A stretch of 32,000 nucleotides of DNA from Microcystis aeruginosa NIES-2549 (lineage in GTDB: Bacteria; Cyanobacteriota; Cyanobacteriia; Cyanobacteriales; Microcystaceae), in NCBI RefSeq assembly GCF_000981785.2, contig NZ_CP011304.1, positions 4,170,001 through 4,202,000 of the forward strand, read 5' to 3'. The notes under the pieces were generated by a model. It did not search any database. It saw only the letters and a program-made list of their open reading frames with translations, and was not told the DNA's origin. This document shows, in pieces, positions 4,661-23,953 of the stretch. Both the position numbers and the translations under genes were made by a program. Each line of letters starts with the position of its first letter. The first letter of the stretch is position 1.

Positions 4661-4741
4661 CCCTTAATAAGGGGGGTGCCGACAATTTTTAACACCTACC
4701 TGCTTAGGTACTTAATAAAGTTGTGATTAGGAGAAAAAACG

Positions 4742-5335
4742 ATGATTGCTTTATCTAACTATAATAATCTCACTCCAGAAGAATATCTTCAGTTTGAAGA
4801 AACCAGTCTCATTAAACATGAATATATCGATGGACAAGTTTACGCCATGGCAGGGACGACGGATACTCATAATATTATCGGACTCAATTTCACTTTTATT
4901 ATTCGTAATCATTTGCGGGGTTCTGGTTGTCGAGTTTATTTTGCCGATGTGAAAGTCAGATTAGAGAAACGTAATCACTTTTATTATCCTGATATTATTG
5001 TCACCTGCGATAACAGAGATAGAGAAACCGCTACCTACAAAAGTTTTCCTAAATTGATTGTTGAAGTTCTCTCCGATTCTACAGAAGCTTTTGACAGGGG
5101 GGATAAATTTAATGATTATCAAACTCTAGAAAGTTTAGAGGAATATGTCTTAGTGAATAGTAAACACCAACGAGTGGAAACTTTTCGACGGGGTGAACAG
5201 GGTTTATGGATTCTGCAAACCTATCAGCAAGAAAGTTTTAGTTTACAGAGTATTAATCTGACGGCATCTTTTCGGGATTTATACGGGGATGTCACCCTAG
5301 AAACGGTTAATTATTCCGTGGAAGAAATAGAATAA
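4742..5335 (+). CDS. Uma2-family (DUF820) putative PD-(D/E)xK endonuclease, intact copy
   Basis: 197 aa. Typical Uma2 pattern: EEYLQFEETSLIKHEYIDGQVYAMAGTTDTHN ... YYPDIIVTC ... PKLIVEVLSDSTEAFDRGDKF..Y..L.SLEEYVLV. Its stop is 1 nt from the stop of the convergent MotB-like gene. Confidence 0.8.
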   Translation: MIALSNYNNLTPEEYLQFEETSLIKHEYIDGQVYAMAGTTDTHNIIGLNFTFIIRNHLRGSGCRVYFADVKVRLEKRNHFYYPDIIVTCDNRDRETATYKSFPKLIVEVLSDSTEAFDRGDKFNDYQTLESLEEYVLVNSKHQRVETFRRGEQGLWILQTYQQESFSLQSINLTASFRDLYGDVTLETVNYSVEEIE

Positions 5336-5336
5336 A

Positions 5337-5978
5337 TCATTGTTTTTTACCGGGGGGAATAAAACGGATTTCAATTCTGCGTCTGCTTGCATCTGCGTCA
5401 CGATTAACCGCAGCTAAGTTACCCGATGGTAGGTATAACTGTCCTGCGGAAAAAGCTCGAAATTTGACGTTTTTGAGTTTACCTGTGTTTTCGATTTCTT
5501 GGACTACTGCTAAAGCTCGCATTAATCCTAAATCAGTGTTAGAACCGGGTACTAGCATTTTAACAGATTGTTTTCTGCTGGCAACCGATTCGATATTTTT
5601 ATCGAGATTACTTGTCTTCTGTATTCCTTGTCCGTCGGTGTGTCCAATTACTTGAATAAAGTCGATTTCTCTGTCTTTGGTAATGGTTTCGATAGCGGGA
5701 ATAATGCGCTGACGAATATGGGTTTTTAAAGCAGGGTTTAATTCAGCACTTCCCGACTGAAATTTAAATTTTCCTGATTTTTCATCGATAACTATGGGGG
5801 TTGCTGTTTGCAGTTTTCGGTTAGCTTCCTCCAGTTTGCTGATGAGATTATAGGACTGAAAAAGTGCCAAGAGGAGAAATAAACTCAGAATCATGAAAGC
5901 ATTGGACATTAAATCGGTAAATGCGGGATAAACATCCACCGATTTATCTTCATCTCGGTAGTAGGTACGTCTAGACAT
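5337..5978 (-). CDS. MotB/OmpA-like (ZorB/ExbD-position) stator subunit: N-terminal TM with a conserved Asp plus an OmpA-type peptidoglycan-binding domain
   Basis: 213 aa. YPAFTDLMSNAFMILSLFLLLAL is a MotB-type plug/TM segment with Asp. The C-terminal half carries OmpA_C-like motifs: FQSGSAEL, VIGHTDGQG, NTDLGLMRALAV, RRRIEIRF. Confidence 0.75.
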   Translation of the reverse strand: MSRRTYYRDEDKSVDVYPAFTDLMSNAFMILSLFLLLALFQSYNLISKLEEANRKLQTATPIVIDEKSGKFKFQSGSAELNPALKTHIRQRIIPAIETITKDREIDFIQVIGHTDGQGIQKTSNLDKNIESVASRKQSVKMLVPGSNTDLGLMRALAVVQEIENTGKLKNVKFRAFSAGQLYLPSGNLAAVNRDADASRRRIEIRFIPPGKKQ

Positions 5979-6000
5979 AGTTACTTATATGTTGGTGAAG

Positions 6001-9000
6001 TTATTCAAATAGGGTGTTAATGTCATCCAGAACATCTTTTTGAGGAGGATTAGGGATTGTCTCACAAAGTTTTTCTATCTTATCCTTTAAGTTAGAAAAT
6101 TCAGACTGAACATCTTTTTGAGTAGGATTAGGGATTGTCTCAAAAAGGTTTTTAAGTTCTTCCAACTTCTTATTTAACTTATAAATGTCATCCTGAACAT
6201 CTTTTTGAGGAGGATTAGGGATTGTCTCAAAAAGTTCTTTAAGTTCTTCCATCTTATTATTTAAGTTAGAAAAGTCAGAACGCATATCGTTAATTTTCTC
6301 CAGTTCTGCTAAACATTTTTGAATTTCTCCATAAATATGTTCAATCATTTTCTGATTCGATTTATTTTCCTTAGCGATAACTTTCTCTAACTTATCTCGC
6401 AAAGATTCTAAGTTAGCAGTTAATTGACTGGTGTTGGTGTTCACCGCATCAATTACTTGAGAAAAATCTGATTTAAGGCTGCCAAATTGATTGGCTGTTT
6501 TCTCAATAGATTGGGAAACTGCTTTTAATTGTTCTGAGTTCTTAGTTAATTTATCATCAACTACCATCCCTAAGTTATTGCTTAAAAGGTTTAACTCAGA
6601 CTGTAAGCTTTCCTTGACTTGAGTAAGTTGCTCTGTCACTGTATCAATTAACTGAGACAAGTTAGCATTAGTCACATCGAGATTATTACTAGAGCGCTCA
6701 ATCCCATGGGAAGCTGTGAGGATTTTATCGGAGGTTTGGGAGAGTCTTTCATCGAGACTATTGATAAGTTGGTTTCCTAATTGTTTCGACTCGGAGTTAA
6801 AACTGTCTTGATAGGTTTTCACAGTTTCGATTAATTTTACTAATTCTCCCTGAATGTTAGATAACTTTTCTTGTTCGGTGACTGAGCGTTGCTGATTTTG
6901 TTCTAGGATTTTCTCAGAGACTTGAGTAAGTTGCTCTGTCACTGTATCAATTAACTGAGACAAGTTAGCATTAGTCACATCGAGATTATTACTAGAGCGC
7001 TCAATCCCATGGGAAGCTGTGAGGATTTTATCGGAGGTTTGGGAGAGTCTTTCATCGAGACTATTGATAAGTTGGTTTCCTAATTGTTTCGACTCGGAGT
7101 TAAAACTGTCTTGATAGGTTTTCACAGTTTCGATTAATTTTACTAATTCTCCCTGAATGTTAGATAACTTTTCTTGTTCGGTGACTGAGCGTTGCTGATT
7201 TTGTTCTAGGATTTTCTCAGAGACTTGAGTAAGTTGCTCTGTCACTGTATCAATTAACTGAGACAAGTTAGCATTAGTCACATCGAGATTATTACTAGAG
7301 CGCTCAATCCCATGGGAAGCTGTGAGGATTTTATCGGAGGTTTGGGAGAGTCTTTCATCGAGACTATTGATAAGTTGGTTTCCTAATTGTTTCGACTCGG
7401 AGTTAAAACTGTCTTGATAGGTTTTCACGGTTTCGATTAATTTTACTAATTCTCCCTGAATGTTGGATAACTTTTCTTGTTCGGTGACTGAGCGTTGCTG
7501 ATTTTGTTCTAGGATTTTCTCAGAGACTTGAGTAAGTTGCTCTGTCACTGTATCAATTAACTGAGACAAGTTAGCATTAGTCACATCGAGGTTATTACTA
7601 GAGCGCTCAATCCCGTGGGAAGCAGTGAGAATTTTATCGGAGGTTTGGGAGAGTCTTTGCTCAAGACGATTGATAAGTTGGTTTCCTAATTGTTTCGACT
7701 CGGAGTTAAAACTGTCTTGATAGGTTTTCACAGTTTCGATTAATTTTACTAATTCTCCCTGAATGTTAGATAACTTTTCTTGTTCGGTGACTAAGCGTTG
7801 CTGATTTTGTTCTAGGATTGTCTCAGATTTTTGATTCAAGTCAGTAATTTTTATTCCTAACTCAACCATAGTTGTCATGGAACGCTGGAAGTCTTGAGTT
7901 AAAGAAGCTAGAGATTGAGTTGATTGGTTTAACTCAGACTGTAAGCTTTCCTTGACTTGAGTAACTTGCTCTGTCACTGTATCAATTAACTGAGACAGGT
8001 TAGCATTAGTCACATCTGGATTATTACTAGAGCGCTCAATCCCATGGGAAGCTGTGAGAATTTTATCGGAGGTTTGGGAGAGTCTTTCATCGAGACTATT
8101 GATAAGTTGATTGCCTAATTGTTTCGACTCGGAGTTAAAACTGTCTTGATAGGTTTTCACAGTTTCGATTAATTTTACTAATTCTCCCTGAATGTTAGAT
8201 AACTTTTCTTGTTCGGTGACTGAGCGTTGCTGATTCTGTTCTAGGATTTTCTCAGAGACTTGAGTAAGTTGCTCTGTCACTGTATCAATTAACTGAGACA
8301 AGTTAGCATTAGTCACATCGAGGTTATTACTAGAGCGCTCAATCCCATGGGAAGCTGTGAGGATTTTATCGGAGGTTTGGGAGAGTCTTTCATCGAGACT
8401 ATTGATAAGTTGGTTTCCTAATTGTTTCGACTCGGAGTTAAAACTGTCTTGATAGGTTTTCACAGTTTCGATTAATTTTACTAATTCTCCCTGAATGTTA
8501 GATAACTTTTCTTGTTCGGTGACTGAGCGTTGCTGATTTTGTTCTAGGATTTTCTCAGATTTTTGATTCAAGTCAGTAATTTTTATTCCTAACTCAACCA
8601 TAGTTGTCATTGAACGCTGGAAGTCTTGAGTTAAAGAAGCTAGAGATTGAGTTGATTGGTTTAACTCAGACTGTAAGCTTTCCTTGACTTGAGTAACTTG
8701 CTCTGTCACTGTATCAATTAACTGAGACAGGTTAGCATTAGTCACATCGAGATTATTGCTAGAGCGCTCAATCCCATGGGAAGCTGTGAGGATTTTATCG
8801 GAGGTTTGGGAGAGTCTTTCATCGAGACTATTGATAAGTTGGTTTCCTAATTGTTTCGACTCGGAGTTAAAACTGTCTTGATAGGTTTTCACAGTTTCGA
8901 TTAATTTTACTAATTCTCCCTGAATGTTAGATAACTTTTCTTGTTCGGTGACTGAGCGTTGCTGATTTTGTTCTAGGATTTTCTCAGATTTTTGATTCAA

Positions 9001-9711
9001 GTCAGTAATTTTTATTCCTAACTCAACCATAGTTGTCATTGAACGCTGGAAGTCTTGAGTTAAAGAAGCTAGAGATTGAGTTGATTGGTTTAACTCAGAC
9101 TGTAAGCTTTCCTTGACTTGAGTAAGTTGCTCTGTCACTGTATCAATTAACTGAGACAGGTTAGCATTAGTCACATCGAGATTATTGCTAGAGCGCTCAA
9201 TCCCATGGGAAGCTGTGAGGATTTTATCGGAGGTTTGGGAGAGTCTTTCATCGAGACTATTGATAAGTTGGTTTCCTAATTGTTTCGACTCGGAGTTAAA
9301 ACTGTATTGATAGGTTTTCACGGTTTCGATTAATTTTACTAATTCTCCCTGAATGTTGGATAACTTTTCTTGTTCGGTGACTGAGCGTTGCTGATTTTGT
9401 TCTAGGATTTTCTCAGATTTTTGATTCAAGTCAGTAATTTTTATTCCTAACTCAACCATAGTTGTCATTGAACGCTGGAAGTCTTGAGTTAAAGAAGCTA
9501 GAGATTGAGTTGATTGGTTTAACTCAGACTGTAAGCTTTCCTTGACTTGAGTAAGTTGCTCTGTCACTGTATCAATATTATTACTTAAGCGGTTGACTTT
9601 TTTGGTTGACTCTTGGAGATGTTTATAGAGAGCAATTAAGACGGTGGGAAAAATAACCAAGACTAGAATTAAAAGAATCAGATAGGGAGGAAAAAGGTTA
9701 AGTAATGCCAT
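6001..9711 (-). CDS. Giant single-pass membrane coiled-coil protein made of near-identical tandem modules; its N-terminus is paralogous to the MotA-like gene at 10430-11974
   Basis: 1236-aa uninterrupted ORF. The N-terminal TM MALLNLFPPYLILLILVLVIFPTVLIALYKHLQ is about 90% identical to that of the 541-aa ORF. It is followed by 8 modules of 143/101 aa and a unique C-terminal 230 aa with 3x ETIPNP(P/T)QKDV. The MotA channel helices are absent. Confidence 0.7.
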   Translation of the reverse strand: MALLNLFPPYLILLILVLVIFPTVLIALYKHLQESTKKVNRLSNNIDTVTEQLTQVKESLQSELNQSTQSLASLTQDFQRSMTTMVELGIKITDLNQKSEKILEQNQQRSVTEQEKLSNIQGELVKLIETVKTYQYSFNSESKQLGNQLINSLDERLSQTSDKILTASHGIERSSNNLDVTNANLSQLIDTVTEQLTQVKESLQSELNQSTQSLASLTQDFQRSMTTMVELGIKITDLNQKSEKILEQNQQRSVTEQEKLSNIQGELVKLIETVKTYQDSFNSESKQLGNQLINSLDERLSQTSDKILTASHGIERSSNNLDVTNANLSQLIDTVTEQVTQVKESLQSELNQSTQSLASLTQDFQRSMTTMVELGIKITDLNQKSEKILEQNQQRSVTEQEKLSNIQGELVKLIETVKTYQDSFNSESKQLGNQLINSLDERLSQTSDKILTASHGIERSSNNLDVTNANLSQLIDTVTEQLTQVSEKILEQNQQRSVTEQEKLSNIQGELVKLIETVKTYQDSFNSESKQLGNQLINSLDERLSQTSDKILTASHGIERSSNNPDVTNANLSQLIDTVTEQVTQVKESLQSELNQSTQSLASLTQDFQRSMTTMVELGIKITDLNQKSETILEQNQQRLVTEQEKLSNIQGELVKLIETVKTYQDSFNSESKQLGNQLINRLEQRLSQTSDKILTASHGIERSSNNLDVTNANLSQLIDTVTEQLTQVSEKILEQNQQRSVTEQEKLSNIQGELVKLIETVKTYQDSFNSESKQLGNQLINSLDERLSQTSDKILTASHGIERSSNNLDVTNANLSQLIDTVTEQLTQVSEKILEQNQQRSVTEQEKLSNIQGELVKLIETVKTYQDSFNSESKQLGNQLINSLDERLSQTSDKILTASHGIERSSNNLDVTNANLSQLIDTVTEQLTQVSEKILEQNQQRSVTEQEKLSNIQGELVKLIETVKTYQDSFNSESKQLGNQLINSLDERLSQTSDKILTASHGIERSSNNLDVTNANLSQLIDTVTEQLTQVKESLQSELNLLSNNLGMVVDDKLTKNSEQLKAVSQSIEKTANQFGSLKSDFSQVIDAVNTNTSQLTANLESLRDKLEKVIAKENKSNQKMIEHIYGEIQKCLAELEKINDMRSDFSNLNNKMEELKELFETIPNPPQKDVQDDIYKLNKKLEELKNLFETIPNPTQKDVQSEFSNLKDKIEKLCETIPNPPQKDVLDDINTLFE
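6031..6235. repeat. Three copies of a 34-nt box (encodes the ETIPNPPQKDV motif) at the 3' end of the giant gene
   Basis: aacatctttttgag(g/t)aggattagggattgtctca starts at 6031, 6109 and 6196 (spacing 78 and 87 nt). Confidence 0.75.
6590..9575. repeat. In-frame tandem array: 8 units of 303 nt or 429 nt, nearly identical
   Basis: The anchor GACTTGAGTAA(G/C)TTGCTCTGTCACTG occurs at 6616, 6919, 7222, 7525, 7954, 8257, 8686, 9115 and 9544. Spacings are 303,303,303,429,303,429,429,429 nt. Confidence 0.9.
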
Positions 9712-9895
9712 GATAGTTATTGGATACCTCGAATTGTGGTTGATAGAGAGAGTTGGGGGTGAATGTTTCCTCAGATAGCTGGGGAAACATCATTAAGATT
9801 AATAAATTTTATCATTCATCAGTAGTGCTAACCTCTCCGGGTAAACTGGGTTGACTACTGTTATTGTTTGTTCCCAGTAAAGTTTGTTGCTTTTT
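9585..9895. repeat. Segmental duplicate (copy 2) of 11831-12158: the 5' end of the MotA-like gene, the spacer and the last 28 codons of the tubulin-like gene
   Basis: By eye it aligns at roughly 90-95% identity with 11831-12158. Differences include a 15-nt indel and a G5 versus G7 run. Confidence 0.85.
9812..9895 (-). pseudogene. Remnant of the 3' end of the tubulin-like gene (last ~28 codons plus stop)
   Basis: The reverse complement reads ...QQTLLGTNNNSSQPSLPGEVSTTDE*, matching the C-terminus of the 12077-15220 product (…LLGTNNNSSQPSLPAEVSTTDE*). Confidence 0.8.
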
Positions 9896-9909
9896 CAACG
9901 ATTAAACCC

Positions 9910-10419
9910 ATGATTGCTTTATATAGCTATAATAATCTCACTCCAGAAGAATATCTTCAGTTTGAAGAAACCAGTCTCATTAAACATGAATATATCGATG
10001 GACAAGTTTACGCCATGGCAGGGACGACGGATACTCATAATATTGTTTTGGGGAATATATACACAATTATTTGTAATCATTTGCGGGGGTCCGATTGTCG
10101 GGTTTATTTTGCCGATGTGAAAGTCAGATTAGAGAAACGCAATCACTTTTATTATCCTGATATTATTGTCACCTGCGATGACAGAGATAGAGAAACCGCT
10201 ACCTACAAAAGTTTTCCTAAATTGATTGTTGAAGTTCTCTCCGATTCTACAGAAGCTTTTGACAGGGGGGATAAATTTAATAATTATCAAACTCTAGAAA
10301 GTTTAGAGGAATATGTCTTAGTGAATAGTAAACACCAACGAGTGGAAACTTTTCGACGGGGTGAACAGGGTTTATGGATTCTGCCGATTTATCTTCATCT
10401 CGGTAGTAGGTACGTCTAG
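9910..10419 (+). pseudogene. 3'-truncated second copy of the Uma2 endonuclease gene, fused to antisense MotB-like sequence
   Basis: 9910-10384 parallels 4742-5216, with the protein identical except around residues 45-55. After ...GEQGLWIL the frame runs into the reverse complement of the MotB-like start (PIYLHLGSRYV*). The TTG-initiated extension from 9868 in the ORF track is tubulin-remnant sequence. Confidence 0.75.
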
Positions 10420-10423
10420 ACAT
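10385..10423 (-). pseudogene. 13-codon 5' remnant of a MotB/OmpA-like gene
   Basis: The reverse complement encodes MSRRTYYRDEDKS, identical to 5940-5978. Its ATG lies 6 nt after the stop of the MotA-like gene. The rest of the gene is deleted. Confidence 0.8.
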
Positions 10424-10429
10424 AGTTAC

Positions 10430-11974
10430 TTAGAATGGTTTTTTGATACTATCAGATACTTGATTGATTTCTTTTTCCATCTCAGATAAAAAAGAATTTT
10501 TCTGTTGATTGCTAAGGTTAATAATTTGGTTTAAGATGGCTTGTATATCTCTGAGATAACTGACTGTTTGCTGACTTTTCTCAGCAATAATTTCTCCTTG
10601 ATAATTATTACGGCCAACTTCTTGAGAAATTAATCGACTTAACCGGTCACCTAAAGCAGTTAATTGGTCTGAGTTATTGTTAATATTGTGAGTAGTTTCT
10701 AATAAGTTGTTTTGGATTGACTGAAGAGAAATAAGTAGTTGTTCAGTCCTTTCATTGAGAACAATGTTTAAATTTTGACTTTCTTTACGAATTGATAGAG
10801 AAGACTGTCCTAAATTTTTAATTTCCGCTTCTACGCTTACCAAGCTTTTGAAAGTATTATGAACATTATCTGTTGCTTGACTCATCAATTTAGTTAAACT
10901 ATCTATATGTTCCACTGTTAGACATAACTTAGCATGAGTAGAATATAACTTTTCAGAAGTTGCGACTAAATTATCAGTAACTTGACTATTAACTAATTTA
11001 TCAACTGTCGATTTAAAGTTACTAATGCAGTTATCCAAACTCTGACCATATTTAACAAAGTTTTCGTGGTGAATTGCTTTATATAATTTGTTGACATTTT
11101 CTTCAAAACTATTGGTAGAACTCTTAAAAGTCGTCGCACCGGTAGATAAAGTTCCTGCGGTTTCAGTTAATCTTTCACAAACCTGAGTGACTAATTTAGC
11201 AGTTTCCTGATTACCATCATCAATTTTTTTAGCAACTTTCTCTAAAGAAGATTCTAATACTCTCGTCACCTCATTATGAAAGTTAGTCAGAAATGCTTGC
11301 TGTGTATCCACCATGCGATTAACCGCTTTATCCAAGCGACTATTCCCTTCTACAGTCGGCTGCAAGATATTATCTAAATAGTCTTCTAGGGAACTAATTA
11401 GATTTACTTTAGCAAGGTTGGTATTAAAGATTAAGTTAATCACAGTCAGCAAAGAACTACAAGCTAAACCAATTAAGCTAGTGATAAAAGCAATCCCCAT
11501 GCTTTCTAGGGGAGTTTTGAGCTTTTCTCCTAAACTTTGCAAATCGACATTATTAATATCGATAAGTGTGCTGATTCCCGTCAGATTGAGAGTAATTCCG
11601 AAGAAAGTTCCCAACAAACCAAAAGCGAGGAGGAGATTGGGTAACACTCTTACAAAATAATCCCATTTTTCGCAACTGAGAGATTTAGACATGAAAGTAA
11701 ATTGTTCTTCATGGTATAAACCATCTACCAAAGCTGCGGTATTAACATCATCTAGTTGACTACTGGCTATCTTAAATCTATTCTCTAGATTAGAGATAAT
11801 TTTAGGTTGAACCCCGCGACTTTCTCCCCGAATTAAGCGCTTGACTTTTGCAGTTGAATCTTGGAGATGTTTATAGAGAGTCATCCGGATTCTCACAGCT
11901 AAGACGGTGGGAAAAATAACCAAGACTAGAGTTAAAACAATCAGATAGGGGGGAAAAAGGTTAAGTAATGCCAT
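10430..11974 (-). CDS. MotA/TolQ/ExbB-family proton-channel protein with a ~330-aa C-terminal coiled-coil tail (ZorA-like architecture)
   Basis: TM1 is LFPPYLIVLTLVLVIFPTVL. The channel signature is LLLAFGLLGTFFGITLNL ... SMGIAFITSLIGLACSSLLTVINLIF (compare ExbB/TolQ GLFGTVWGI ... GIAEALIATAIGL). A long heptad-rich tail follows. I chose the start at MALLNLF (11974) because the paralogue at 9711 starts there; the ORF is also open to 12055. Confidence 0.75.
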   Translation of the reverse strand: MALLNLFPPYLIVLTLVLVIFPTVLAVRIRMTLYKHLQDSTAKVKRLIRGESRGVQPKIISNLENRFKIASSQLDDVNTAALVDGLYHEEQFTFMSKSLSCEKWDYFVRVLPNLLLAFGLLGTFFGITLNLTGISTLIDINNVDLQSLGEKLKTPLESMGIAFITSLIGLACSSLLTVINLIFNTNLAKVNLISSLEDYLDNILQPTVEGNSRLDKAVNRMVDTQQAFLTNFHNEVTRVLESSLEKVAKKIDDGNQETAKLVTQVCERLTETAGTLSTGATTFKSSTNSFEENVNKLYKAIHHENFVKYGQSLDNCISNFKSTVDKLVNSQVTDNLVATSEKLYSTHAKLCLTVEHIDSLTKLMSQATDNVHNTFKSLVSVEAEIKNLGQSSLSIRKESQNLNIVLNERTEQLLISLQSIQNNLLETTHNINNNSDQLTALGDRLSRLISQEVGRNNYQGEIIAEKSQQTVSYLRDIQAILNQIINLSNQQKNSFLSEMEKEINQVSDSIKKPF

Positions 11975-12158
11975 GATAGTTATTGGATACCTCGAATTGT
12001 GGTTGATAGAGAGAGTTGGGGGGGTGAATGTTTCCTGAGATAGCTGGGGAAACATTATTAAGATTGCTCAATTTTATCATTCATCAGTAGTGCTAACCTC
12101 TGCGGGTAAACTGGGTTGACTACTGTTATTATTTGTTCCCAGTAAACTTTGTTGCTTT
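11831..12158. repeat. Segmental duplicate (copy 1) matching 9585-9895
   Basis: See 9585-9895. It spans the tubulin-like stop (12077), the spacer and the first ~45 codons of the MotA-like gene. Confidence 0.85.
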
Positions 12159-15100
12159 TGCTGTTGTTTTTCGAGTTTTTTCTGTTCACCAGTACGTTTT
12201 TCTAGTTCCATTTTCAGTTGATTAACAAAACGGGTGATAATTCCTTCTTTTGCCTCCTGTTGAGTATTTCCATCTTGTCCAGCTACCTTATCTTTGTAGC
12301 GATAATTGGGGTGATAGGAGGGTAAATTTTTGACATTGTTGACAAAATAGCTGACGTTCTGGAAATAATCACCCTCGTTAGTAAATAATAGGGTAGGATT
12401 AGCCAAAATCTCATTTTTTGCCTGATTAAGCAGTATCTGCAAAGCATTAATCATGTCATTACGAGAAGCAAATTGTTCTAAGGCAAGTCGCCAATTACCG
12501 CTAATGTCAATGATGGACTTATTGTTAAATAAATCGCCTTCGATGACTAATTGATAAGTATCATCTTCCTCATCGTATTCTAGTAAACCGAGAGCAATTG
12601 CGGGATAGAAAATAAACTCTAATTCCTCAATTAATTTGGCAGGTGGTGGAATAATATCAGCAAAATCTATCCTGTAATCATTGTGTAAAATGCTGATTCT
12701 TTTTTGGTCTTGATAGATTTGTTGCAACCCAGATAAATCAGTAATGATTCTTAGGGGAAACCCACCAAACTCGTAGGTAATTAGGATTTCTTCGTCGGTT
12801 TGAATTGATTTAAAAGAAGTTCCCTTAATATTTAAATCAGATTCAAGAGTCTTCATAAATCTTTGCATGGTGGGTGAATTATCATCCTTAGTCCCAATTA
12901 GTAATGCTTTATCTGTATGCAAGCGATAGTAAGCATCATTAACATTTATCGGTAACATTAAATCAGCTTCTCGCAGAATTTGCGCCAAGCGTTCAGGAAA
13001 ATCATGGGGTTTATATTGACCCATAAATCGCTTAATTACTGCATCAATTTTATTAGTGCTTACTGATTGAAACTGTTTCTCGATTGTAGCTGTTAGAGTC
13101 TCTTTGAGAGTCTCATTATCAATAACAAAAGATTGGCTAAATAAACTGAATAGGGAAGCATTATAGCCTAAATTATTGGTGACTTTTTGGCTAACGGAAA
13201 TGTATTGAGTTCGGGAGTTACTGTCCGGGATACAGTTATCAATATTCTCCTCTGGAAAAATACCTTCCCCAGTCATCTCGTCGAGATTTAACTGCATTAA
13301 CTCCTGTTCGTATTTATCGTATTCTGTGATTAGCTGATATAGGGATTCTTTCAGTTGTTGTATCTGCAGCATTCGACTGGAAATATGCTTGAGAATCGCT
13401 TCAACAATCTTTCTAGATTCGCGATTGATACTGAAATTAAAGTTCTGCTGAATTAATTTTTGTCCGCTTTGAACGTAGTCTCTTAACTCAGCTTTGATTC
13501 TCTCACTATTGGCATTTTTATTGAACATCTTGAAGACAGACTTTTTCCCGTTTATATCTTCGAGAGTTTGTTTAACATTTCGCCAAATGTTATCAATTTT
13601 TTCCGAGGAATGAAACCCTTTATTATCCTGAGATAATTCCTCTAGATTCCCCTTGTAGGTATTAATCTGTACTTGTAAAGCGACCAAAAAAGATAGGCTA
13701 TTTTCCAAAGAAAATTCTAAGCTATCAGGATTAAGAAGAATCTCCAAAAATTGGTCAATATCTGACTTAAATTTTTCGATTAATTTAGGTTGAGTTTGTT
13801 GGGTCAGAGTTAACCAGATTCCACGACTGCTATCCGTTTCTCCCCCCTGTACTTTGCGAAACTCTTTTTCTAGGGATTGCTTGACGGTTTGGGGTAAATT
13901 CTCCAAATCTTGACTATTGGATATTTCTTCCTCTAGGGAATTTTTCCAAGAGGTTAAAGTCTTGGAAAAAGTTTTATTATTCTCTAGGGTTGCTTCTTCC
14001 AATCTGGCAGTAAAATAATCCTTATTACTTTGGGTACTCCAATTAGCTAGGAACTTACTTAATAACTCTTGTCCACTGGGACTTTGACCATATCCCTCTA
14101 ACCAAAATTTAATTAATTTGAGACTAAAACGATTGAGACCAATCTGCACAATTCGGTCGCGAGTAAAATAAATCCTCGCTAGTCCAAAGGACATATAACC
14201 TTGACACATCTGAAAAGGATGATTATCTTTACGAATCATCGGGTCTTTATAGTTATCCCGATTGCTTTTGATGGGGAGAGATAACTCATCGGCAAAATCC
14301 AAGAAAATCTTGTAAGCAATGACATTACATAATTTACCTTTGTTATTAATCCGGTAATCTCCCGCAGTGCGATTAGAAACTAAGTAGGCAAAATCAAAAG
14401 GAGAACGTTTTTCATCGATGTGGACGAAATTTTGTTTATCATAACAGGCTTGAAAGGAATTACTTTCATTGGTATAATGATCTAACTCTTTCAAAGCTGC
14501 ATAGGTATTAGCTCTCATAATTGCCCCATCACCATAAAGTTTAGGACTAATTACCAAATAACCAAAGGATGTATATTCGGCCGTTTGTTGTAAAATATGA
14601 CGCAAAGTGTAGGCCACATCGAGGAAAATACCGCTACCAGTTCCCCCACACAAAGAACCGACAACAAAGACATTTAAACCCTCTTGGACATTAAAACTTT
14701 GACCGTTAACTTTACCGCTAAACATAAAGGATTCATGACCAGAAGTTCGTCTTTCCGCTGCTTCAATTGCCTCCTGAATTTTTTGATAGTTATGGAAGAA
14801 AGCTAAACGACCGACGGGACGAATACCTCCCGCACCATTTTCAATGGCAGTTATTTGTTTTTTTAGTCTTGGGTCTAACCAGCTTTCAATATGGGAAAAG
14901 GGACTTTCAAAAAGGGTTTTGTGTTCAAGTTCATAGGTGAGATTGTTAACATCCTGAGCATTCATATTAATGAATACTCTTTCAGCAGCTGATAGAAGAA
15001 TTTCTTCTCCGTGATAGCTATTTCCTGTGGGTAAACCCGAACCATTGAAAGCGTTTTTGTCTGTGTCAATATGAACAAAACTGACAACGGGTAGGTTAGA

Positions 15101-15220
15101 TAACTTCCCATACTTATCAATAATAAAGCGACGAATTCTCATTAACACATCTCGACCAGTACCACCTAATCCGATGATAATTGTCCGTTTGATAGCGCGG
15201 GTTTGACTGGTGTTAGCCAT
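12077..15220 (-). CDS. Large tubulin/FtsZ-superfamily GTPase (Pfam Tubulin_2 / FtsZl-1-like) with a ~700-aa C-terminal extension
   Basis: 1047 aa. T1-type loop TIIIGLGGTGRDV at residues 13-25. Tubulin signature GGTGSG in VFVVGSLCGGTGSGIFLDVAY. The C-terminal two thirds are helical/coiled-coil and end in a Q/K-rich low-complexity tail. AGGAG lies about 10 nt upstream of the ATG. Confidence 0.8.
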   Translation of the reverse strand: MANTSQTRAIKRTIIIGLGGTGRDVLMRIRRFIIDKYGKLSNLPVVSFVHIDTDKNAFNGSGLPTGNSYHGEEILLSAAERVFINMNAQDVNNLTYELEHKTLFESPFSHIESWLDPRLKKQITAIENGAGGIRPVGRLAFFHNYQKIQEAIEAAERRTSGHESFMFSGKVNGQSFNVQEGLNVFVVGSLCGGTGSGIFLDVAYTLRHILQQTAEYTSFGYLVISPKLYGDGAIMRANTYAALKELDHYTNESNSFQACYDKQNFVHIDEKRSPFDFAYLVSNRTAGDYRINNKGKLCNVIAYKIFLDFADELSLPIKSNRDNYKDPMIRKDNHPFQMCQGYMSFGLARIYFTRDRIVQIGLNRFSLKLIKFWLEGYGQSPSGQELLSKFLANWSTQSNKDYFTARLEEATLENNKTFSKTLTSWKNSLEEEISNSQDLENLPQTVKQSLEKEFRKVQGGETDSSRGIWLTLTQQTQPKLIEKFKSDIDQFLEILLNPDSLEFSLENSLSFLVALQVQINTYKGNLEELSQDNKGFHSSEKIDNIWRNVKQTLEDINGKKSVFKMFNKNANSERIKAELRDYVQSGQKLIQQNFNFSINRESRKIVEAILKHISSRMLQIQQLKESLYQLITEYDKYEQELMQLNLDEMTGEGIFPEENIDNCIPDSNSRTQYISVSQKVTNNLGYNASLFSLFSQSFVIDNETLKETLTATIEKQFQSVSTNKIDAVIKRFMGQYKPHDFPERLAQILREADLMLPINVNDAYYRLHTDKALLIGTKDDNSPTMQRFMKTLESDLNIKGTSFKSIQTDEEILITYEFGGFPLRIITDLSGLQQIYQDQKRISILHNDYRIDFADIIPPPAKLIEELEFIFYPAIALGLLEYDEEDDTYQLVIEGDLFNNKSIIDISGNWRLALEQFASRNDMINALQILLNQAKNEILANPTLLFTNEGDYFQNVSYFVNNVKNLPSYHPNYRYKDKVAGQDGNTQQEAKEGIITRFVNQLKMELEKRTGEQKKLEKQQQKQQSLLGTNNNSSQPSLPAEVSTTDE

Positions 15221-15237
15221 GGTTTAAATCTCCTGAG

Positions 15238-16362
15238 TTATTTTTTGCTAATCTGAATTTGTAGGTCGAAATCTTGATGGTTATGGTGATAGGTTAAAGT
15301 CAGGTAATTTTTATCTATCTTCACCTCCTGAGTTAGTTGATTACCTCGATAAAAAATCTCTGCTTGTTTACTGGGTTTCAGATATAACTGATTGCCGCGT
15401 CTTTCTAAATAGCAGCGAATTTCTTCCCCAGCACGAGAAAAGGTATTCTTCTTATGTTCTTCACCACCGATGTTAATTTTTCCAGATGTTTTTAAAATAT
15501 ATTTTTGGGTTTCATCTTCATCATCATTAGAGGAGACTTCAATAGTCCAAGCAGTATTTAACAGCAACCAGTGACGAATTCCCAAAATACTCGCTACTAT
15601 TCCCCCAATTCCCATTAATGTAATTACCAATGCTGGCAACCATAACTGACTCAAGAGATAAGGATTAATCAAACAGGTTTCTTGTCCTCCCGGTGCGGGA
15701 GTACAAAACTCTTGTGCTGTGGGAGCAATATCGACAACTGATAGTTGATATTTATTGCCGTTAGTGGCGGTAATTTCTTGGGTTCTTAGATTAATTGGTA
15801 GGGAATTAAGCCAGTTTTGTCTCTCCAAACTTTCGGGAGAATCAGCAAGACGAAAAGGGCTATTTTTTGGGGTTTCTATCCACTGTTGGGAAGTAATCCC
15901 CGCGCCAGTAGAAAGGGGTGCATCGGTAATCCAAACTACCGACTGGGGTTTGATAGCTTGATTGGCAGTTAAACGACACTGATTTAAGCGTGCCAGTCGG
16001 GGATAAACGTGCCATTCTGCTTGCTGAATATCGGTATTTTTAGCACTTTGGCTAGATTGCCAGGGAATCGCCTTTAAAACCGCGTCTATATCTTCCTGAC
16101 TCCGAATTAAAATCGGTTCTGCAATCGGTTGAACATTATCAGCAAAGGGGAATAAATAAACGGAATCGTTATTTTTTAAACTATCGCGAATAATTTGACC
16201 GAGGCGCGTGCGTCCTTCATCATTAAAGTTAACACTACCGGTAAGATCGATCGCTAGGATAACATCTCGTCCCTGCCAACGAGCCACCAAATCTAATCCG
16301 AGTTTTTGCCAATCAGTAAGCGGTTCCCCGGGGGATACCGTTAAACATTCAGCACTTTTCAT
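15238..16362 (-). CDS. vWA-domain protein with a central TM helix and a C-terminal beta-rich (degenerate FHA-like) domain
   Basis: 374 aa. The MIDAS-like start of a vWA fold is VILAIDLTGSVNFNDEGR ... SVYLFPFADNV ... VVWITDAPL. The TM is LWLPALVITLMGIGGIVASILGI. The tail YILKTSGKINIGGEE...IRCYLERRGNQLYLKP...IFYRGNQL resembles an FHA topology but lacks the canonical R/S/H residues. The stop is 17 nt before the tubulin-like start. Confidence 0.65.
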   Translation of the reverse strand: MKSAECLTVSPGEPLTDWQKLGLDLVARWQGRDVILAIDLTGSVNFNDEGRTRLGQIIRDSLKNNDSVYLFPFADNVQPIAEPILIRSQEDIDAVLKAIPWQSSQSAKNTDIQQAEWHVYPRLARLNQCRLTANQAIKPQSVVWITDAPLSTGAGITSQQWIETPKNSPFRLADSPESLERQNWLNSLPINLRTQEITATNGNKYQLSVVDIAPTAQEFCTPAPGGQETCLINPYLLSQLWLPALVITLMGIGGIVASILGIRHWLLLNTAWTIEVSSNDDEDETQKYILKTSGKINIGGEEHKKNTFSRAGEEIRCYLERRGNQLYLKPSKQAEIFYRGNQLTQEVKIDKNYLTLTYHHNHQDFDLQIQISKK

Positions 16363-20359: not shown

Positions 20360-20698
20360 TTATGGCTCTGATTCTAGGTTAAACTCAATCCGGCTCTGTA
20401 AAACCATTTCTGCAATTACCGCTCCTCCTTTACCTTGAGCTAAAACCCGCTCAAAACGGTTGATTAATTCGGGAATATTGATCACTTCCTCTACCGATTC
20501 TAGATATCTTTCGACAATTGCCCTGATCTTGTATCTTATCTTAGCTTGCTCCGCAACTTTTTCTAAAATTTCCTCGCAAGTCTGCTCGGTTTTAACCACA
20601 AAAGTAATGGGATATTTTTGCACTTTATCAATATCTAAAAAATATTTATCAGCAGCTATCGTTTCCGTAACTTGAAAAAATCGACCTAGGGGTTTCAT
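20360..20698 (-). CDS. ORF fragment: probable C-terminal part of the adjacent restriction endonuclease (split gene or pseudogene), otherwise hypothetical
   Basis: 112 aa with no recognisable family on its own. It is in the same frame as 20756-21478 and is separated from it only by one TAA plus 19 sense codons. Confidence 0.45.
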   Translation of the reverse strand: MKPLGRFFQVTETIAADKYFLDIDKVQKYPITFVVKTEQTCEEILEKVAEQAKIRYKIRAIVERYLESVEEVINIPELINRFERVLAQGKGGAVIAEMVLQSRIEFNLESEP

Positions 20699-20755: not shown

Positions 20756-21478
20756 TTATTCAGAGTTTAAGCGATCAGGCGACCATCCCCAATATATTTT
20801 CTGTTCCCCATAATACTCTTTAAGAATTGCATAACTGACAATCTCAAAAACTCTAGCATCAATGTTTGGTCTGAGTAAACTCCGAATAAATTCAATGGCT
20901 TTCTGGGGATCTTGCTGTTGAATATCAATCATCTGTTGACAATAGCTGATAAATTGATTAAATGCTTTTTGTCTTGTTTGCACATAGGCATCAATTATAT
21001 CTATAATCACTGGCGCAATATTAACTTGATTACCCTCTAGATAAAACTTAATTAGATTCTCATTAATCCAGTATCTATTGGTTTTAACATCTCTAATTAT
21101 CGGCAGATAAGATAAGGTGGGAAAATACTTGTTAAATTCCTGATTTAATCGATGATTGAGAGCATGATTTTGTAATTTATTGCCAAAAGGAAGCTCCCTT
21201 TGCCTGCGAAAAAGTGTCATATACTGAGCGCCTTGATACTCGTCGTATCCATCCTTAAGATGAAACTCATTATTAATATAGTCTTCCACTAAAACATAAA
21301 TTGCATAATGGTTAGCCAATCCTGCTCGGGATTTAGAACCTCGATTAGCAGCTCTAGTTTTAATGTTCAAATATTGCAATAACTCACTAGCATTTAAAAT
21401 ACTATTTCCCTGATTAGGAAAGTAATTATCGATAATTTTAATAATTATCTTGGTGAATTCATGCTTTACTATCGACAT
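20756..21478 (-). CDS. Putative type II restriction endonuclease, N-terminal fragment (ends inside an Mrr-like PD-(D/E)xK core)
   Basis: The start at MSIVKHEF (21478) overlaps the upstream methyltransferase stop by 20 nt. The C-terminus ...DARVFEIVSYAILKEYYGEQ... resembles the first helix of Mrr-type nuclease domains. The role assignment is mainly positional. Confidence 0.5.
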   Translation of the reverse strand: MSIVKHEFTKIIIKIIDNYFPNQGNSILNASELLQYLNIKTRAANRGSKSRAGLANHYAIYVLVEDYINNEFHLKDGYDEYQGAQYMTLFRRQRELPFGNKLQNHALNHRLNQEFNKYFPTLSYLPIIRDVKTNRYWINENLIKFYLEGNQVNIAPVIIDIIDAYVQTRQKAFNQFISYCQQMIDIQQQDPQKAIEFIRSLLRPNIDARVFEIVSYAILKEYYGEQKIYWGWSPDRLNSE

Positions 21479-22352
21479 CGAAAAGACTCTCCTGTACAAA
21501 GTTAGATTCTTGTTTATTTTCGCTTTTTCTACTATAGCTTTTTTGAGGAGGGAGTAACTTTTCTCCCTTGTATTCTTGCCATCCGAGAATCCGTCGAAGA
21601 CCAATTTTTAAATACTGCTCTTGTAATTCTATACTAATAGAAATTCTTCCCAAACGTTTAGCTACAGCTGCAGATGTAAAAGTTCCTGCAAATGGATCAA
21701 GCACAATTCCACTCTTGTCAGTGCTGGCCAAAATAATTCTTTCTAGCAATGATTCAGGTTTTTGTGAAGGATGATTTTCGTATTCATCCATGCGATATCT
21801 GACCCTAGGGAAATACCAGACATTGCCCGGCACTTTCTCTGTATTGTATTGACTCGGAATCGCTTTTCTATAATCAATTAGTTTTCGTTTTGCTCCAGTT
21901 TTTGCTTCTATCTTAATATCCTTTGAATTAAAAGTGTAATTATTTTTATCTTTCACACAGTGAAGTATTGGTTCATACATCGAACCAAAGTATTTTGTTG
22001 CTTGTACTCCTGAACTATCATAATGCCAGATAATACGACTAAGAATCGTCATTTTTTGTCTTAAGTAAAGATCAAAGTAAGGCATTGCTTGAGTGCTGGC
22101 CATAACATATAATGTTCCCTGGGGTTTCAAGATACGAAGACACTGATCAAGAATTTGATTTGCCCAATTTATATAATCATTTTCCGATTCCCATTTGTCG
22201 TAAAAATCGGCAAAGTGCTTACCTATATTATAGGGAGGATCGAGAAAAATTAGATCTACAGAATTAGAGGCAATCTCACTGGATAAAATCGGCAAAGAAT
22301 CACCATGAAATATAACTTGCTCATCAGCTTCGTATCGTTTAAACATGATCAT
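21459..22352 (-). CDS. Beta-class DNA amino-methyltransferase (N6-adenine or N4-cytosine)
   Basis: 297 aa. Motif IV LIFLDPPYN is near the N-terminus and motif I VLDPFAGTFTSA is near the C-terminus, which is the IV-before-I order of beta-class MTases. Confidence 0.85.
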   Translation of the reverse strand: MIMFKRYEADEQVIFHGDSLPILSSEIASNSVDLIFLDPPYNIGKHFADFYDKWESENDYINWANQILDQCLRILKPQGTLYVMASTQAMPYFDLYLRQKMTILSRIIWHYDSSGVQATKYFGSMYEPILHCVKDKNNYTFNSKDIKIEAKTGAKRKLIDYRKAIPSQYNTEKVPGNVWYFPRVRYRMDEYENHPSQKPESLLERIILASTDKSGIVLDPFAGTFTSAAVAKRLGRISISIELQEQYLKIGLRRILGWQEYKGEKLLPPQKSYSRKSENKQESNFVQESLFDVDSKA

Positions 22353-22561: not shown

Positions 22562-23953
22562 CTAATAATCAGTCCGAATTATTTCTAGTAAATTTCTAGC
22601 CACTGCTTCCACTACAGTGATAGGAACAGAATTTCCGAATTGTTTTTTAGCGATAGCTGACTGTGGATGATAGATAAAATTATCGGGGAATCCTTGTAAT
22701 TTACGCGCATCTTGGGGAGTAATTTCTCGAAACTTTTTGGGTTTATAGATTTTCTTTAAAAACAATTGTTTGTATTCTTGGGGATGAGTAGCGGTAATTG
22801 AAATAGTGGCAATATAATCTTTAGCACCCGTAGCGGTTAGGGTAGGAATAATATCGGCCGTCGGTAAAATAATCCGATAAATGCCGTTAATTCCCGTCAT
22901 ATTTTTCGAGTTAATAAATTCATACTTACCTGCGGTCGTTTGCCAACAAATACCCAGAGAAACTAACTGATTTAGTTCCTCGATTTTTAGGTCGGGTATA
23001 ATTTCCAAAAAAGTAGAAAAAGCCACGGGATGACCATCTTTTTCGCCATACTTTTTACTGCGTCTTAATTTCAGCAAAGCTAAACAGATACTTTTTTGTC
23101 GTTCCGTAGTTTTGATAATATCCCAAGAATGAATAGTTGTGTGGCCATTTCTTAAATCAGAAAAAATAAAGAAGTCATTTAATTCATCTTCTTTTTGAAA
23201 ACGAGTTCTCGATGGAGGAACAAAACCATTAAATAAAGTATCTGCTGATAACTTAACTTTCTCGACGGGTTGAATATTTTTGATGTCTTCTAAAATATCT
23301 AAAACCTTGGGATGGATACCCAAAGGTAAAGGAAATTTAAACCGCTCATAGTTATCTATATTTTTTCTAATTCCTACGATAAAAACTCTCTCGCGATTCT
23401 GGGGTAAACCAAAATCGTAGGCATTTAATAACTGCCAGTAAACTTGATAACCACAGCTAGTTAATTCATCGATAATTAACTCTAAATTCTCCCGATTGCG
23501 AGGACTAGCTAACCCACTGACATTCTCGAAAATAAAGCTTTTGGGTTGACTTTTCTGGACTAATTTAATCACATCAAACCAGAGTTTTCCCCGGGGATCT
23601 TCAAATCCCCGTAAACATCCCGCCACCGACCAAGGTTGACAGGGAACGCCGCCGACAATAAGATCAAGATTATCGGGTAAATTGCTGATTTTACTCACAT
23701 CTCCGAAAGCAATTTCATCGCTGTTGAGATAGCTAATAAAATTCTGTTGATAAACTTGGATGGCCTGTTTATCAATTTCTGAATAACCTAAACAACGTCC
23801 TCCCAATTTCTCCAAAGCGATTCTAAACCCACCGATTCCCGCGAATAAATCGACAAAACGATACTGGGGATGGGTGATAACTAGATGTAGGGGTAATTGG
23901 GTTTGTGTGCTGACTTTAACTGTGGTTTTCAAGGGTAAATAATTGCTTTTCAC
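22562..23953 (-). CDS. DNA (cytosine-5)-methyltransferase
   Basis: 463 aa. Motif I DLFAGIGGF, motif IV GGVPCQPWS, motif VI FENV, motif VIII QNRERVFIVG, a ~200-aa variable target-recognition region, and motif X GNSVPITVV. Confidence 0.9.
   Translation of the reverse strand: MKSNYLPLKTTVKVSTQTQLPLHLVITHPQYRFVDLFAGIGGFRIALEKLGGRCLGYSEIDKQAIQVYQQNFISYLNSDEIAFGDVSKISNLPDNLDLIVGGVPCQPWSVAGCLRGFEDPRGKLWFDVIKLVQKSQPKSFIFENVSGLASPRNRENLELIIDELTSCGYQVYWQLLNAYDFGLPQNRERVFIVGIRKNIDNYERFKFPLPLGIHPKVLDILEDIKNIQPVEKVKLSADTLFNGFVPPSRTRFQKEDELNDFFIFSDLRNGHTTIHSWDIIKTTERQKSICLALLKLRRSKKYGEKDGHPVAFSTFLEIIPDLKIEELNQLVSLGICWQTTAGKYEFINSKNMTGINGIYRIILPTADIIPTLTATGAKDYIATISITATHPQEYKQLFLKKIYKPKKFREITPQDARKLQGFPDNFIYHPQSAIAKKQFGNSVPITVVEAVARNLLEIIRTDY

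Follow-up and report, generated by a model that had tools for sequence, protein, structure and literature searches.

A Zorya-like tailed stator linked to a tubulin-like GTPase and a vWA protein in a conserved cyanobacterial operon

Large tubulin-like GTPases of the FtsZl1 family (Pfam Tubulin_2) were defined by Makarova and Koonin (2010, Biol Direct 5:33), who described their operons with vWA proteins, a diverged GTPase, kinases and a gene of the 'OmpA family', listed cyanobacterial and Deinococcus members, and proposed a role in membrane remodelling; the OmpA-family gene was read there as a porin or adhesin type and its neighbour as 'lineage-specific, no recognisable domain'. Operons of Firmicutes and Actinobacteria that join a tubulin-domain protein with a vWA protein, a GTPase and, in some cases, HSP70 have been interpreted as conflict systems, for which nucleoside triphosphate-dependent multimeric assemblies were proposed (Kaur et al. 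2020, eLife 9:e52696). Zorya, an anti-phage system, comprises three types, with nucleases or DNA-binding proteins as effectors (Hu et al. 2024; Mariano et al. 2025). Here we describe a locus of Microcystis aeruginosa NIES-2549, at positions 5337-16362 of a 32,000-nucleotide stretch of contig NZ_CP011304.1 (positions 4,170,001 to 4,202,000; the window, to which all coordinates below refer unless a survey locus is named), that encodes a vWA–FHA membrane protein, an FtsZl1-family GTPase (Tub) and two proteins resembling the Zorya stator subunits ZorA and ZorB. The four genes are inherited together as an operon across cyanobacteria, and in sequence comparisons the stator pair is closest to ZorAB, not to MotAB, ExbBD or TolQR. 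An earlier reading of the same DNA from its letters alone (the sequence-only reading) had proposed that a tubulin-like GTPase and a vWA protein are wired here to a Zorya-like tailed stator, and had described FtsZl1 proteins as predicted partners of vWA and OmpA-family proteins in membrane remodelling, as Makarova and Koonin (2010) indeed proposed. Every gene coordinate and motif it gave was correct when rechecked.

All four genes lie on the minus strand. The vWA protein, which has a single transmembrane segment and an FHA domain (16362-15238; 374 residues; identified by structure model and Foldseek), is followed after 17 nucleotides by Tub (15220-12077; 1,047 residues; Pfam Tubulin_2), and after a further 102 nucleotides by the ZorA-like gene (11974-10430; 514 residues; PADLOC ZorA models), which we refer to as the short-tail allele. 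The open reading frame (ORF) of the latter mechanically opens at 12055; the methionine at 11974 is the one used by homologues and gene callers. The intact ZorB-like gene (5978-5337; 213 residues; PADLOC ZorB models) stands farther downstream, separated from zorA by a rearrangement that is described below. The Tub protein is 96-98% identical to its counterparts in M. aeruginosa, M. ichthyoblabe and M. wesenbergii, which identifies the window as Microcystis DNA.

In a survey that took one genome per species, 46 loci were recovered, all of them cyanobacterial and including Microcystis, many Nostocales, Oscillatoriales and Leptolyngbyaceae, with proteins 40-58% identical to those of the window. 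The order vWA–Tub–ZorA-like–ZorB-like, on one strand, was present in every one of the 46 as far as the contigs reach. A second survey started from ZorA and found 74 metagenomic loci: Tub lay upstream of ZorA in 62 of them, directly in 59 and with an insertion in 3, and ZorB was directly downstream of ZorA in 64 of 66. The coupling proposed by the sequence-only reading is supported by both surveys, and the survey of co-occurrence that it had suggested showed Tubulin_2, tailed MotA-like and OmpA/MotB-like genes together across cyanobacteria, and as a trio in Deinococcus. The three insertions between Tub and ZorA are an insertion sequence (IS) in locus L126, three ORFs in L115 and a dynamin-family GTPase in L130. 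The L115 ORFs are paralogous, each of about 265 residues, with no Pfam match. The L130 gene (5034-7619 of that locus) encodes 862 residues with a Dynamin_N match at 8.7e-9, and its presence points to membrane remodelling.

In Deinococcus deserti and D. radiophilus, Tub is plasmid-borne and is followed by a ZorA-like gene and then an OmpA-family ZorB-like gene; the ZorA-like protein has 411 residues, matches PADLOC ZorA1 at 1.6e-7 and bears the label 'methyl-accepting chemotaxis protein' in one of the two. Two further correspondences were considered and rejected. The 418-residue protein encoded upstream in Deinococcus, despite its single mid-protein transmembrane segment, is not a recognizable counterpart of the vWA–FHA protein (hhalign probability 0.6%), and an 829-residue ORF of Nostocales and an 859-residue LRV-repeat protein of D. 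deserti, compared as a possible shared fifth component, have no similarity to each other and no PADLOC match.

Other FtsZl1 genes keep the vWA gene and have different neighbours. This is so for the stator-less genes of Thermus, Meiothermus, Nostoc punctiforme, Azospirillum, Ignavibacteria and Caldilineaceae, and searches with hidden Markov models found no ZorAB-like neighbours of the short Tubulin_2 genes of Ignavibacteria, Caldilineaceae and others (L047-L049, L062, L063) or of an FtsZl1 relative on a viral contig (L064). The existence of distant FtsZl1 genes without a stator means that the stator link is specific to a clade and is not a property of all FtsZl1 proteins: FtsZl1–vWA is a module that recruits different partners, the one found in Deinococcus and in a large clade of cyanobacteria being a ZorAB-type stator. 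On plasmids of Thermus oshimai (L051) and Allomeiothermus silvanus (L058), FtsZl1–vWA stands beside BrxL, RecQ-like helicases, an exonuclease, WYL and IS genes, and a conserved gene of about 680 residues follows Tub in Thermales. On plasmids of N. punctiforme (L050) and Azospirillum (L057), the neighbours are CHAT or caspase genes and several OmpA-family genes, and L063 has a TIR gene some 5.6 kb upstream of Tub. IS elements interrupt Tub in L061, L126 and D. radiophilus, L012 has a split ZorA, and L019 carries an insertion between vWA and Tub; such recurrent interruptions suggest that the operon is dispensable under some conditions.

The ZorA-like protein has a membrane core of the MotA/ExbB type, with the motifs …RxLPNLLLAFGLLGTFFGIT… and …PLESMGIAFITSLIGL…, and the sequences PNLLLxFGLLGTF and IAFxTSL of its second and third transmembrane segments (TM2 and TM3) are invariant in homologues. 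Its best PADLOC match was to ZorA1 (2.2e-16), 11 further ZorA models also matched, and the alignments reach through the ZorA tails. When a profile of the core (first 270 residues, 26 species) was searched against the PDB, the type I ZorA of Shewanella (8VVN) was found at 2e-6 and the Escherichia coli ZorA (8QYH and 8QYD) at 5e-5 to 6e-4; ZorA structures were the only significant matches, and no structure of MotA, ExbB or TolQ appeared at E ≤ 1. The entry 8VVN is the type I ZorAB of Shewanella ANA-3 (Mariano 2025). Behind the core, the sequence predicts a helical tail of about 300 residues with 1 proline and a hydrophobic periodicity of 3.5 residues (z = 6.7). The MotA/TolQ/ExbB channel and long tail seen in the sequence-only reading are thus upheld by ZorA profiles and PDB matches and not by Pfam, where MotA_ExbB (PF01618) gave no match at E ≤ 0.01. 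NCBI labels these ZorA-like proteins 'methyl-accepting chemotaxis protein', and JGI sometimes SbcC or SMC; Pfam detects no methyl-accepting chemotaxis protein signalling domain in them. The NCBI label probably arises because the ZorA tail resembles the helical signalling bundles of chemoreceptors, a resemblance noted by Hu et al. (2024).

The ZorB-like protein, which had been described as a MotB-type product with a transmembrane aspartate and OmpA-like motifs at 5978-5337, fits that description. At its N-terminus is a transmembrane segment in which Asp22 (AFTDLMSN) is invariant, and its peptidoglycan-binding domain is OmpA-like, with the motifs GHTD … N-x-D-L-G-L-M-R … RRRIEIRF; among homologues D22, GHTD and RRRIEI are invariant and N-x-x-L-x-x-R is conserved. 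PADLOC assigned it to ZorB1 (2.2e-9) and ZorB3 (2.2e-8), and the Pfam OmpA match (5.8e-5) fell under that database's cut-off. A profile search of the PDB placed Shewanella ZorB (8VVN_B, 3.3e-7) and E. coli ZorB (8QYD_F, 1.3e-4) at the top, with PomB and MotB at 0.015-0.1 only.

Tub matches Tubulin_2 (PF13809) at 2.8e-99 over residues 14-370 of 1,047, and PF00091 weakly (4e-5). It consists of an N-terminal FtsZ/tubulin fold (about residues 1-400) and helical middle and C-terminal regions. An AlphaFold2 model of residues 1-420, built from 49 diverse homologues, reached a predicted local distance difference test score (pLDDT) of 85.5 and a predicted template modelling score of 0.81. In Foldseek this model matched CetZ first (1e-9), then FtsZ, BtubA and tubulins, with probability 1.00; all 567 matches at or below 1e-3 were structures of the tubulin superfamily, over about 300-345 aligned columns. 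The signatures GLGGTGRD and GGTGSG, from which a tubulin/FtsZ protein had been recognized, are therefore borne out by family profile, model and structural comparison alike. The nucleotide-binding loops are T1 (GLGGTG, residues 17-22) and T4 (GGTGSG, residues 192-197), and G17, D52, R134, G192, G193, G195, A242 and E245 are invariant among the 49 homologues, down to 20% identity. In the model E245 lies close to the end of the presumed helix H7 and may be the catalytic acidic residue. Within clades the N-domain is 85-96% identical, a degree of sequence identity that we take as a sign of strong purifying selection. The C-terminus differs between groups: non-Microcystis cyanobacterial FtsZl1 proteins (L006-L046) have a conserved motif, …KRRLELERLKQDL…EEEY.REKQKIF.KYPL, in place of which Microcystis Tub has a Q-rich tail ending in STTDE. 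We rejected two ideas about these ends, namely that the Nostocales motif is a SHOCT domain (it resembles one by eye and has no Pfam match) and that …STTDE is a conserved phosphothreonine ligand of the FHA domain (the C-terminus is unconserved beyond Microcystis).

The 374-residue vWA protein had no match in Pfam, NCBIfam or PADLOC, so that the vWA and FHA profile searches proposed in the sequence-only reading found nothing in Pfam; a 26-sequence profile search against PDB sequences also found nothing, and both domains were detected by structure alone. An AlphaFold2 model based on 65 sequences (pLDDT 86) predicts an alpha/beta domain at the N-terminus, a beta sandwich at the C-terminus and, between them, one long hydrophobic helix. 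In Foldseek searches of the PDB, the N-terminal part matched the vWA domains of ITIH1 (7.6e-5), complement C2a, BatB and CLCA1, and the C-terminal part the FHA domains of CT664 (3e-4) and Rv0020c (7e-4), with template modelling scores (TMt) of 0.6-0.7 and probability 1.0. The vWA protein with a transmembrane segment and beta-rich tail that had been noticed in the letters is accordingly supported in both of its folds. Its metal ion-dependent adhesion site (MIDAS) is made up of D39-x-T41-x-S43, T110/D111 and D147, of which D39-x-T41-x-S43 and D147 are invariant in alignments of 26 and of 65 homologues. The sole transmembrane helix is at about residues 241-262, and the vWA domain has no signal peptide; because basic residues follow the transmembrane segment, the sequence suggests that the FHA side is cytoplasmic. 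NCBI labels the protein cluster 'VWA domain-containing protein', and the Microcystis proteins form a single cluster of 429 members at 90% identity.

We favour, at a probability of roughly 0.45, the reading that the four products would form a membrane-anchored, Zorya-type device for envelope surveillance or conflict, the output of which is a cytoskeletal GTPase rather than a nuclease. This reading is preferred because tailed stators are otherwise known only from Zorya; because the FtsZl1–vWA kin adjoin caspases, BrxL, helicases, TIR and IS genes and are often plasmid-borne or disrupted; and because one variant (L130) adds a dynamin-like GTPase. A conflict role is further supported by the ZorA tail of Microcystis, which is hypervariable while the other three proteins are conserved. 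More tentatively, the operon might represent a fourth kind of Zorya-type system, in which a 5:2 ZorAB motor signals via its tail to a polymerizing FtsZl1, with the vWA–FHA protein as adaptor and membrane remodelling or sealing as output. By analogy with what structures and experiments have shown for ZorAB (Hu et al. 2024; Mariano et al. 2025), the ZorA-like and ZorB-like proteins would form the 5:2 complex. A disturbance of the envelope, such as phage DNA injection, would lead ZorB to engage peptidoglycan and allow ions to flow past Asp22, upon which the ZorA ring and tail bundle would turn or change conformation and the tail would hand the signal to cytoplasmic partners. The partner here would be FtsZl1, which might bind GTP and assemble at the membrane at the site of the signal, tethered or nucleated by the vWA–FHA protein in the way that FtsA, ZipA and SepF serve FtsZ; its assembly could then remodel, seal or block the membrane locally.

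Several observations weigh against the surveillance or conflict reading. About 12 of the 74 ZorA-side loci are orphan ZorAB-like pairs with a shorter ZorA (about 350-465 residues), and given these pairs, Tub need not be the partner of this stator clade. Viral contigs yielded a single FtsZl1 relative, and a tblastn search of the ZorA-like core against plasmids gave no match. The NCBIfam model antiphage_ZorA_2 scores the ZorA-like protein at 2.5e-8 and 33.4 bits, against a cut-off of 100; PADLOC holds no model for the Tub or vWA proteins; the canonical FHA phosphothreonine motif, G-R … S-x-x-H, is not obvious by eye; and the operon contains no nuclease, toxin or other classical effector. The ZorA tails of Nostoc are stable (547-552 residues, 79% identity), and for this reason the hypervariability of the tail is a trait of the Microcystis lineage. 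Lastly, the operon is flanked by housekeeping genes with conserved synteny, a pattern unusual for defence systems. The orphan pairs themselves are a sister stator clade. Those in L123, L128, L139, L143, L144, L107, L081 and L100 have no Tub or vWA gene nearby and adjoin PhoH, FtsJ/TlyA-like or GidA genes, with a GmrSD-like gene in L143.

The genomic setting bears directly on this question. On one side the window has genes for an acyl-activating enzyme, YlqD and DUF3370, on the other those for GntR, an acyltransferase and RF3, and the operon of Microcystis occupies a fixed site between the GntR/acyltransferase/RF3 group and the acyl-activating enzyme gene. In Nostocales it has psbO, a sigma-factor gene and a 347-residue gene on one side and a gene of about 830 residues on the other, in conserved synteny; in a Nostoc subclade it is bordered by DUF6816 and an ABC transporter at one end and by an M3 peptidase at the other. 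With such flanks, the fixed Microcystis site, the Nostocales synteny and the lack of a PADLOC model for either upstream protein, the suggestion that the cluster lies in an accessory or defence island is not supported. Two of the features cited for it hold in part. The cluster is AT-richer than the flanks at 1-4 kb and 17-20 kb (GC content 0.34-0.40 versus 0.43-0.48), but the stretch at 20-26 kb is just as low. The interval 5337-16362 has no HIP1 sites and the other 21 kb has 5, but about 2.6 would be expected in the cluster, so that their lack is weak evidence. A third feature, a restriction-modification cluster about 4 kb upstream, is real; in it the type II endonuclease gene is broken into two ORFs, at 20360-20698 and 20756-21604 on the minus strand, which cover positions 261-371 and 1-239 of the PADLOC REase_II profile, and from this sequence it is probably inactivated. 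Beside it are an N6/N4 methylase (21459-22352) and a C5 methylase (22562-23953).

It is nearly as likely that the operon encodes a housekeeping machine for the envelope or for membrane remodelling that has no role in defence. The stator would then give ion-motive energy or mechanical information to tubulin-like filaments, which would maintain, repair or reshape the cytoplasmic (or thylakoid-proximal) membrane and the wall of growing or stressed cells. In essence this reading restates the membrane remodelling proposed by Makarova and Koonin and gives it the stator as a source of energy. The same inference was drawn by those authors in 2010. Synteny with core genes in many Nostocales genera and the fixed position in Microcystis fit this explanation, as do the spread over cyanobacterial orders under strong purifying selection, the 429-member vWA cluster, which suggests a near-core gene in Microcystis, the operon's want of a toxin or nuclease effector, the orphan ZorAB-like paralogues beside housekeeping genes and the variant with a dynamin-like partner. 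Set against it are the facts that the sole characterized long-tailed stators are those of anti-phage ZorAB, that relatives in other phyla sit on plasmids amid caspase, CHAT, BrxL, helicase and IS genes, that frequent IS disruption and the rearrangement in this window fit a dispensable function, and that the ZorA tail alleles of Microcystis are hypervariable.

The rearrangement in NIES-2549 is a partial tandem duplication of the segment comprising the Tub 3' end, zorA, zorB and a Uma2-family gene. Positions 9585-9894 (minus strand; repeat alignment) copy 11833-12159 at 90-98% identity, taking in the last 83 nucleotides of Tub, the spacer between it and zorA, and the beginning of zorA, and are the start of the second repeat unit. 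Upstream of this start, positions 9904-10365 copy 4736-5197 of the Uma2 gene at 97% identity, and positions 10384-10432 are identical (100%) to 5939-5987, which leaves exactly 13 codons of zorB, as the sequence-only reading had counted. This stub (10385-10423, minus strand; repeat and breakpoint alignments) begins 6 nucleotides after zorA and is all of zorB that directly follows zorA in the window, although the two genes adjoin in relatives. The upstream unit thus retains an intact short-tail zorA and has lost about 723 nucleotides, spanning most of zorB and the 3' end of Uma2; the breakpoint alignment shows a clean deletion of this size that fuses Uma2 to zorB codon 13. The downstream unit keeps zorB and Uma2, and its zorA is cut to the first transmembrane segment (TM1) joined to the distal segment of a long-tail allele, so that the duplication unites two different ZorA tail alleles. 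Co-directionality on the minus strand, as described from the letters, is right for the four genes; their contiguity is not, since a Uma2 fragment, the duplicated segment and a 1,236-residue ORF are interposed.

That ORF, at 9711-6001 on the minus strand between zorA and the intact zorB, went unmentioned in the sequence-only reading. By repeat analysis it consists of ZorA TM1 (residues 1-42) and 8-9 tail units of 303 or 429 nucleotides that are 95-100% identical to one another, and it ends with the C-terminus of the long-tail ZorA allele. Its repeat unit and C-terminus align with residues 408-727 of the canonical 738-residue Microcystis ZorA at 78-90% identity; it lacks the MotA-like channel core (TM2 and TM3), and its PADLOC matches are to ZorA tail regions only. 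Three 87-nucleotide units near its 3' end (6067-6277) encode '…ELFETIPNPPQKDVQ…'. The intact zorB follows 22 nucleotides after this ORF and 4.4 kb downstream of the short-tail zorA. In this strain the stator would be built from the short-tail ZorA (11974-10430) and that distant zorB copy.

Independent Microcystis assemblies and metagenomes (L053-L056) carry identical junctions, L053-L055 reaching the truncated Uma2 gene and L056 covering the whole; the haplotype is therefore real and circulating. The L056 counterpart of the 1,236-residue ORF has 318 residues, and it may be that the repeat number varies or that short-read assembly collapsed the repeats. Canonical Microcystis loci have one 738-residue ZorA followed by ZorB, and strain NIES-4325 has the same short zorA allele as the window, with zorB directly after it. 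Microcystis ZorA proteins range from 456 to 892 residues, nearly each variant being its own 90% cluster (the 514-residue cluster has 61 member sequences), and their tails are 35-97% identical, versus 91-99% for vWA, Tub and ZorB.

These findings raise the possibility, which we consider unlikely and which is compatible with either functional reading (surveillance or housekeeping), that the locus of this strain is a decaying, non-working remnant. The zorB stub after the intact zorA, the 4.4-kb insert with an antisense Uma2 fragment that parts zorA from the intact zorB, and a second ZorA-derived ORF without TM2 and TM3 would all be expected of a remnant, and the 95-100% identity of the repeats points to very recent instability. 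All four canonical proteins are nevertheless still intact and on the same strand, zorB lies close enough behind the 1,236-residue ORF (22 nucleotides) that it could be co-translated, and the haplotype recurs in at least 4 independent assemblies or metagenomes, alongside the 61 members of the 514-residue ZorA cluster.

It is unlikely that the operon energizes motility or secretion, with the stator powering surface movement or transport on a cytoskeletal track and the vWA protein acting as adhesin or coupler. Gliding in Myxococcus, which employs Agl (MotAB/TolQR-like) motors, MreB and the vWA adhesin CglB, shares the three part classes of stator, cytoskeletal protein and vWA protein, and the Nostocales operon is beside a sigma-factor gene, but the system is present in Microcystis and Deinococcus, which do not glide, it has no linked pilus, Glt-like, secretin or outer-membrane components, its vWA protein has one transmembrane segment only and no signal peptide, and its stator is nearest to ZorAB rather than to AglRQS, TolQR or GldLM.

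The Uma2-family genes are outside the conserved module. The intact gene (4742-5335, plus strand; Pfam Uma2 9e-41, PADLOC candidate PDC-S03 7.5e-34) is convergent with zorB, and such a neighbour is confined to Microcystis, none having been found beside the module in the non-Microcystis loci. The truncated copy (about 9910-10419, plus strand; Pfam Uma2 1.3e-38) belongs to the duplication. Both copies sit on the downstream side, and the cluster is thus not flanked by Uma2 genes as had been described. Promoter and terminator scans at the locus were uninformative.

Few branches of the tubulin/FtsZ superfamily are as divergent as FtsZl1 (Tubulin_2), for which the operon offers a testable role. In a widespread anti-phage system, ZorAB serves as the core that senses and transduces, and it has hitherto been seen with DNA-directed effectors only; our results suggest that ZorAB-type motors are modular front ends able to drive a cytoskeletal output, and they reinterpret the old 'OmpA' association of FtsZl1 as a stator. 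If the operon is indeed a fourth kind of Zorya-type system, this would be the first function for the FtsZl1 family and the first coupling of a stator to a tubulin. The system may also be of relevance to the bloom-forming Microcystis, in which the ZorA tail is strikingly polymorphic. Within the searchable literature, the coverage of which excludes most subscription journals, we found no link of FtsZl1 or tubulin to ZorAB, MotA or Zorya and no function assigned to FtsZl1 since 2010, and in gene-name searches for the presumed orthologues of Anabaena PCC 7120 we found nothing useful; within that literature the stator–FtsZl1 link appears to be undescribed.

Compared with the ZorAB of type I Zorya, the window operon has the same succession of a MotA-like channel protein with a long helical tail and a MotB-like protein with a transmembrane aspartate and an OmpA-like domain, and as in Zorya the stator genes share an operon with genes for cytoplasmic partners. 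It differs in that the partners, Tub and the vWA–FHA protein, are encoded upstream of zorA, whereas those of Zorya are downstream; in that the ZorA tail has about 300 residues versus about 500 in E. coli ZorA; and in that the similarity is distant (NCBIfam ZorA, 33 bits versus 100) and the cyanobacterial context housekeeping. ZorC/D, ZorE and ZorF/G, the effectors by which types I to III are defined, were not found, and the other products of the window operon have no PADLOC match, which places the operon outside those three types. With the 5:2 motors MotAB/PomAB and ExbBD/TolQR it shares the Gly/Thr-rich TM2/TM3 channel motif and a partner with a transmembrane aspartate, and with MotB and PomB also the peptidoglycan-binding domain; unlike it, those motors have no long cytoplasmic tail, and the window contains no genes for flagellar, TonB or TolA partners.

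The conflict systems of Kaur et al. (2020) likewise place a tubulin-domain protein with C-terminal coiled coils beside a membrane-bound vWA protein; their core contains a DO-GTPase/GAP1 protein and HSP70, whereas the window has neither HSP70 nor a GTPase other than Tub, and the terms MotA, MotB and Zorya have 0 occurrences in that paper. The operon also corresponds in composition to the FtsZl1–vWA operons of Makarova and Koonin (2010). Tub has the tubulin-like N-domain, helical or coiled-coil region and alpha-helical C-terminal region of that family, the adjacent vWA protein has an intact MIDAS and a transmembrane segment, and an OmpA-family protein, here the ZorB-like one, is encoded in the operon. 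The P-loop GTPase and Ser/Thr kinase partners of those operons are not in the window, although a dynamin-like GTPase is present in the relative L130, and a further difference is that the OmpA-family gene and its neighbour are identified here as a ZorAB-type stator.

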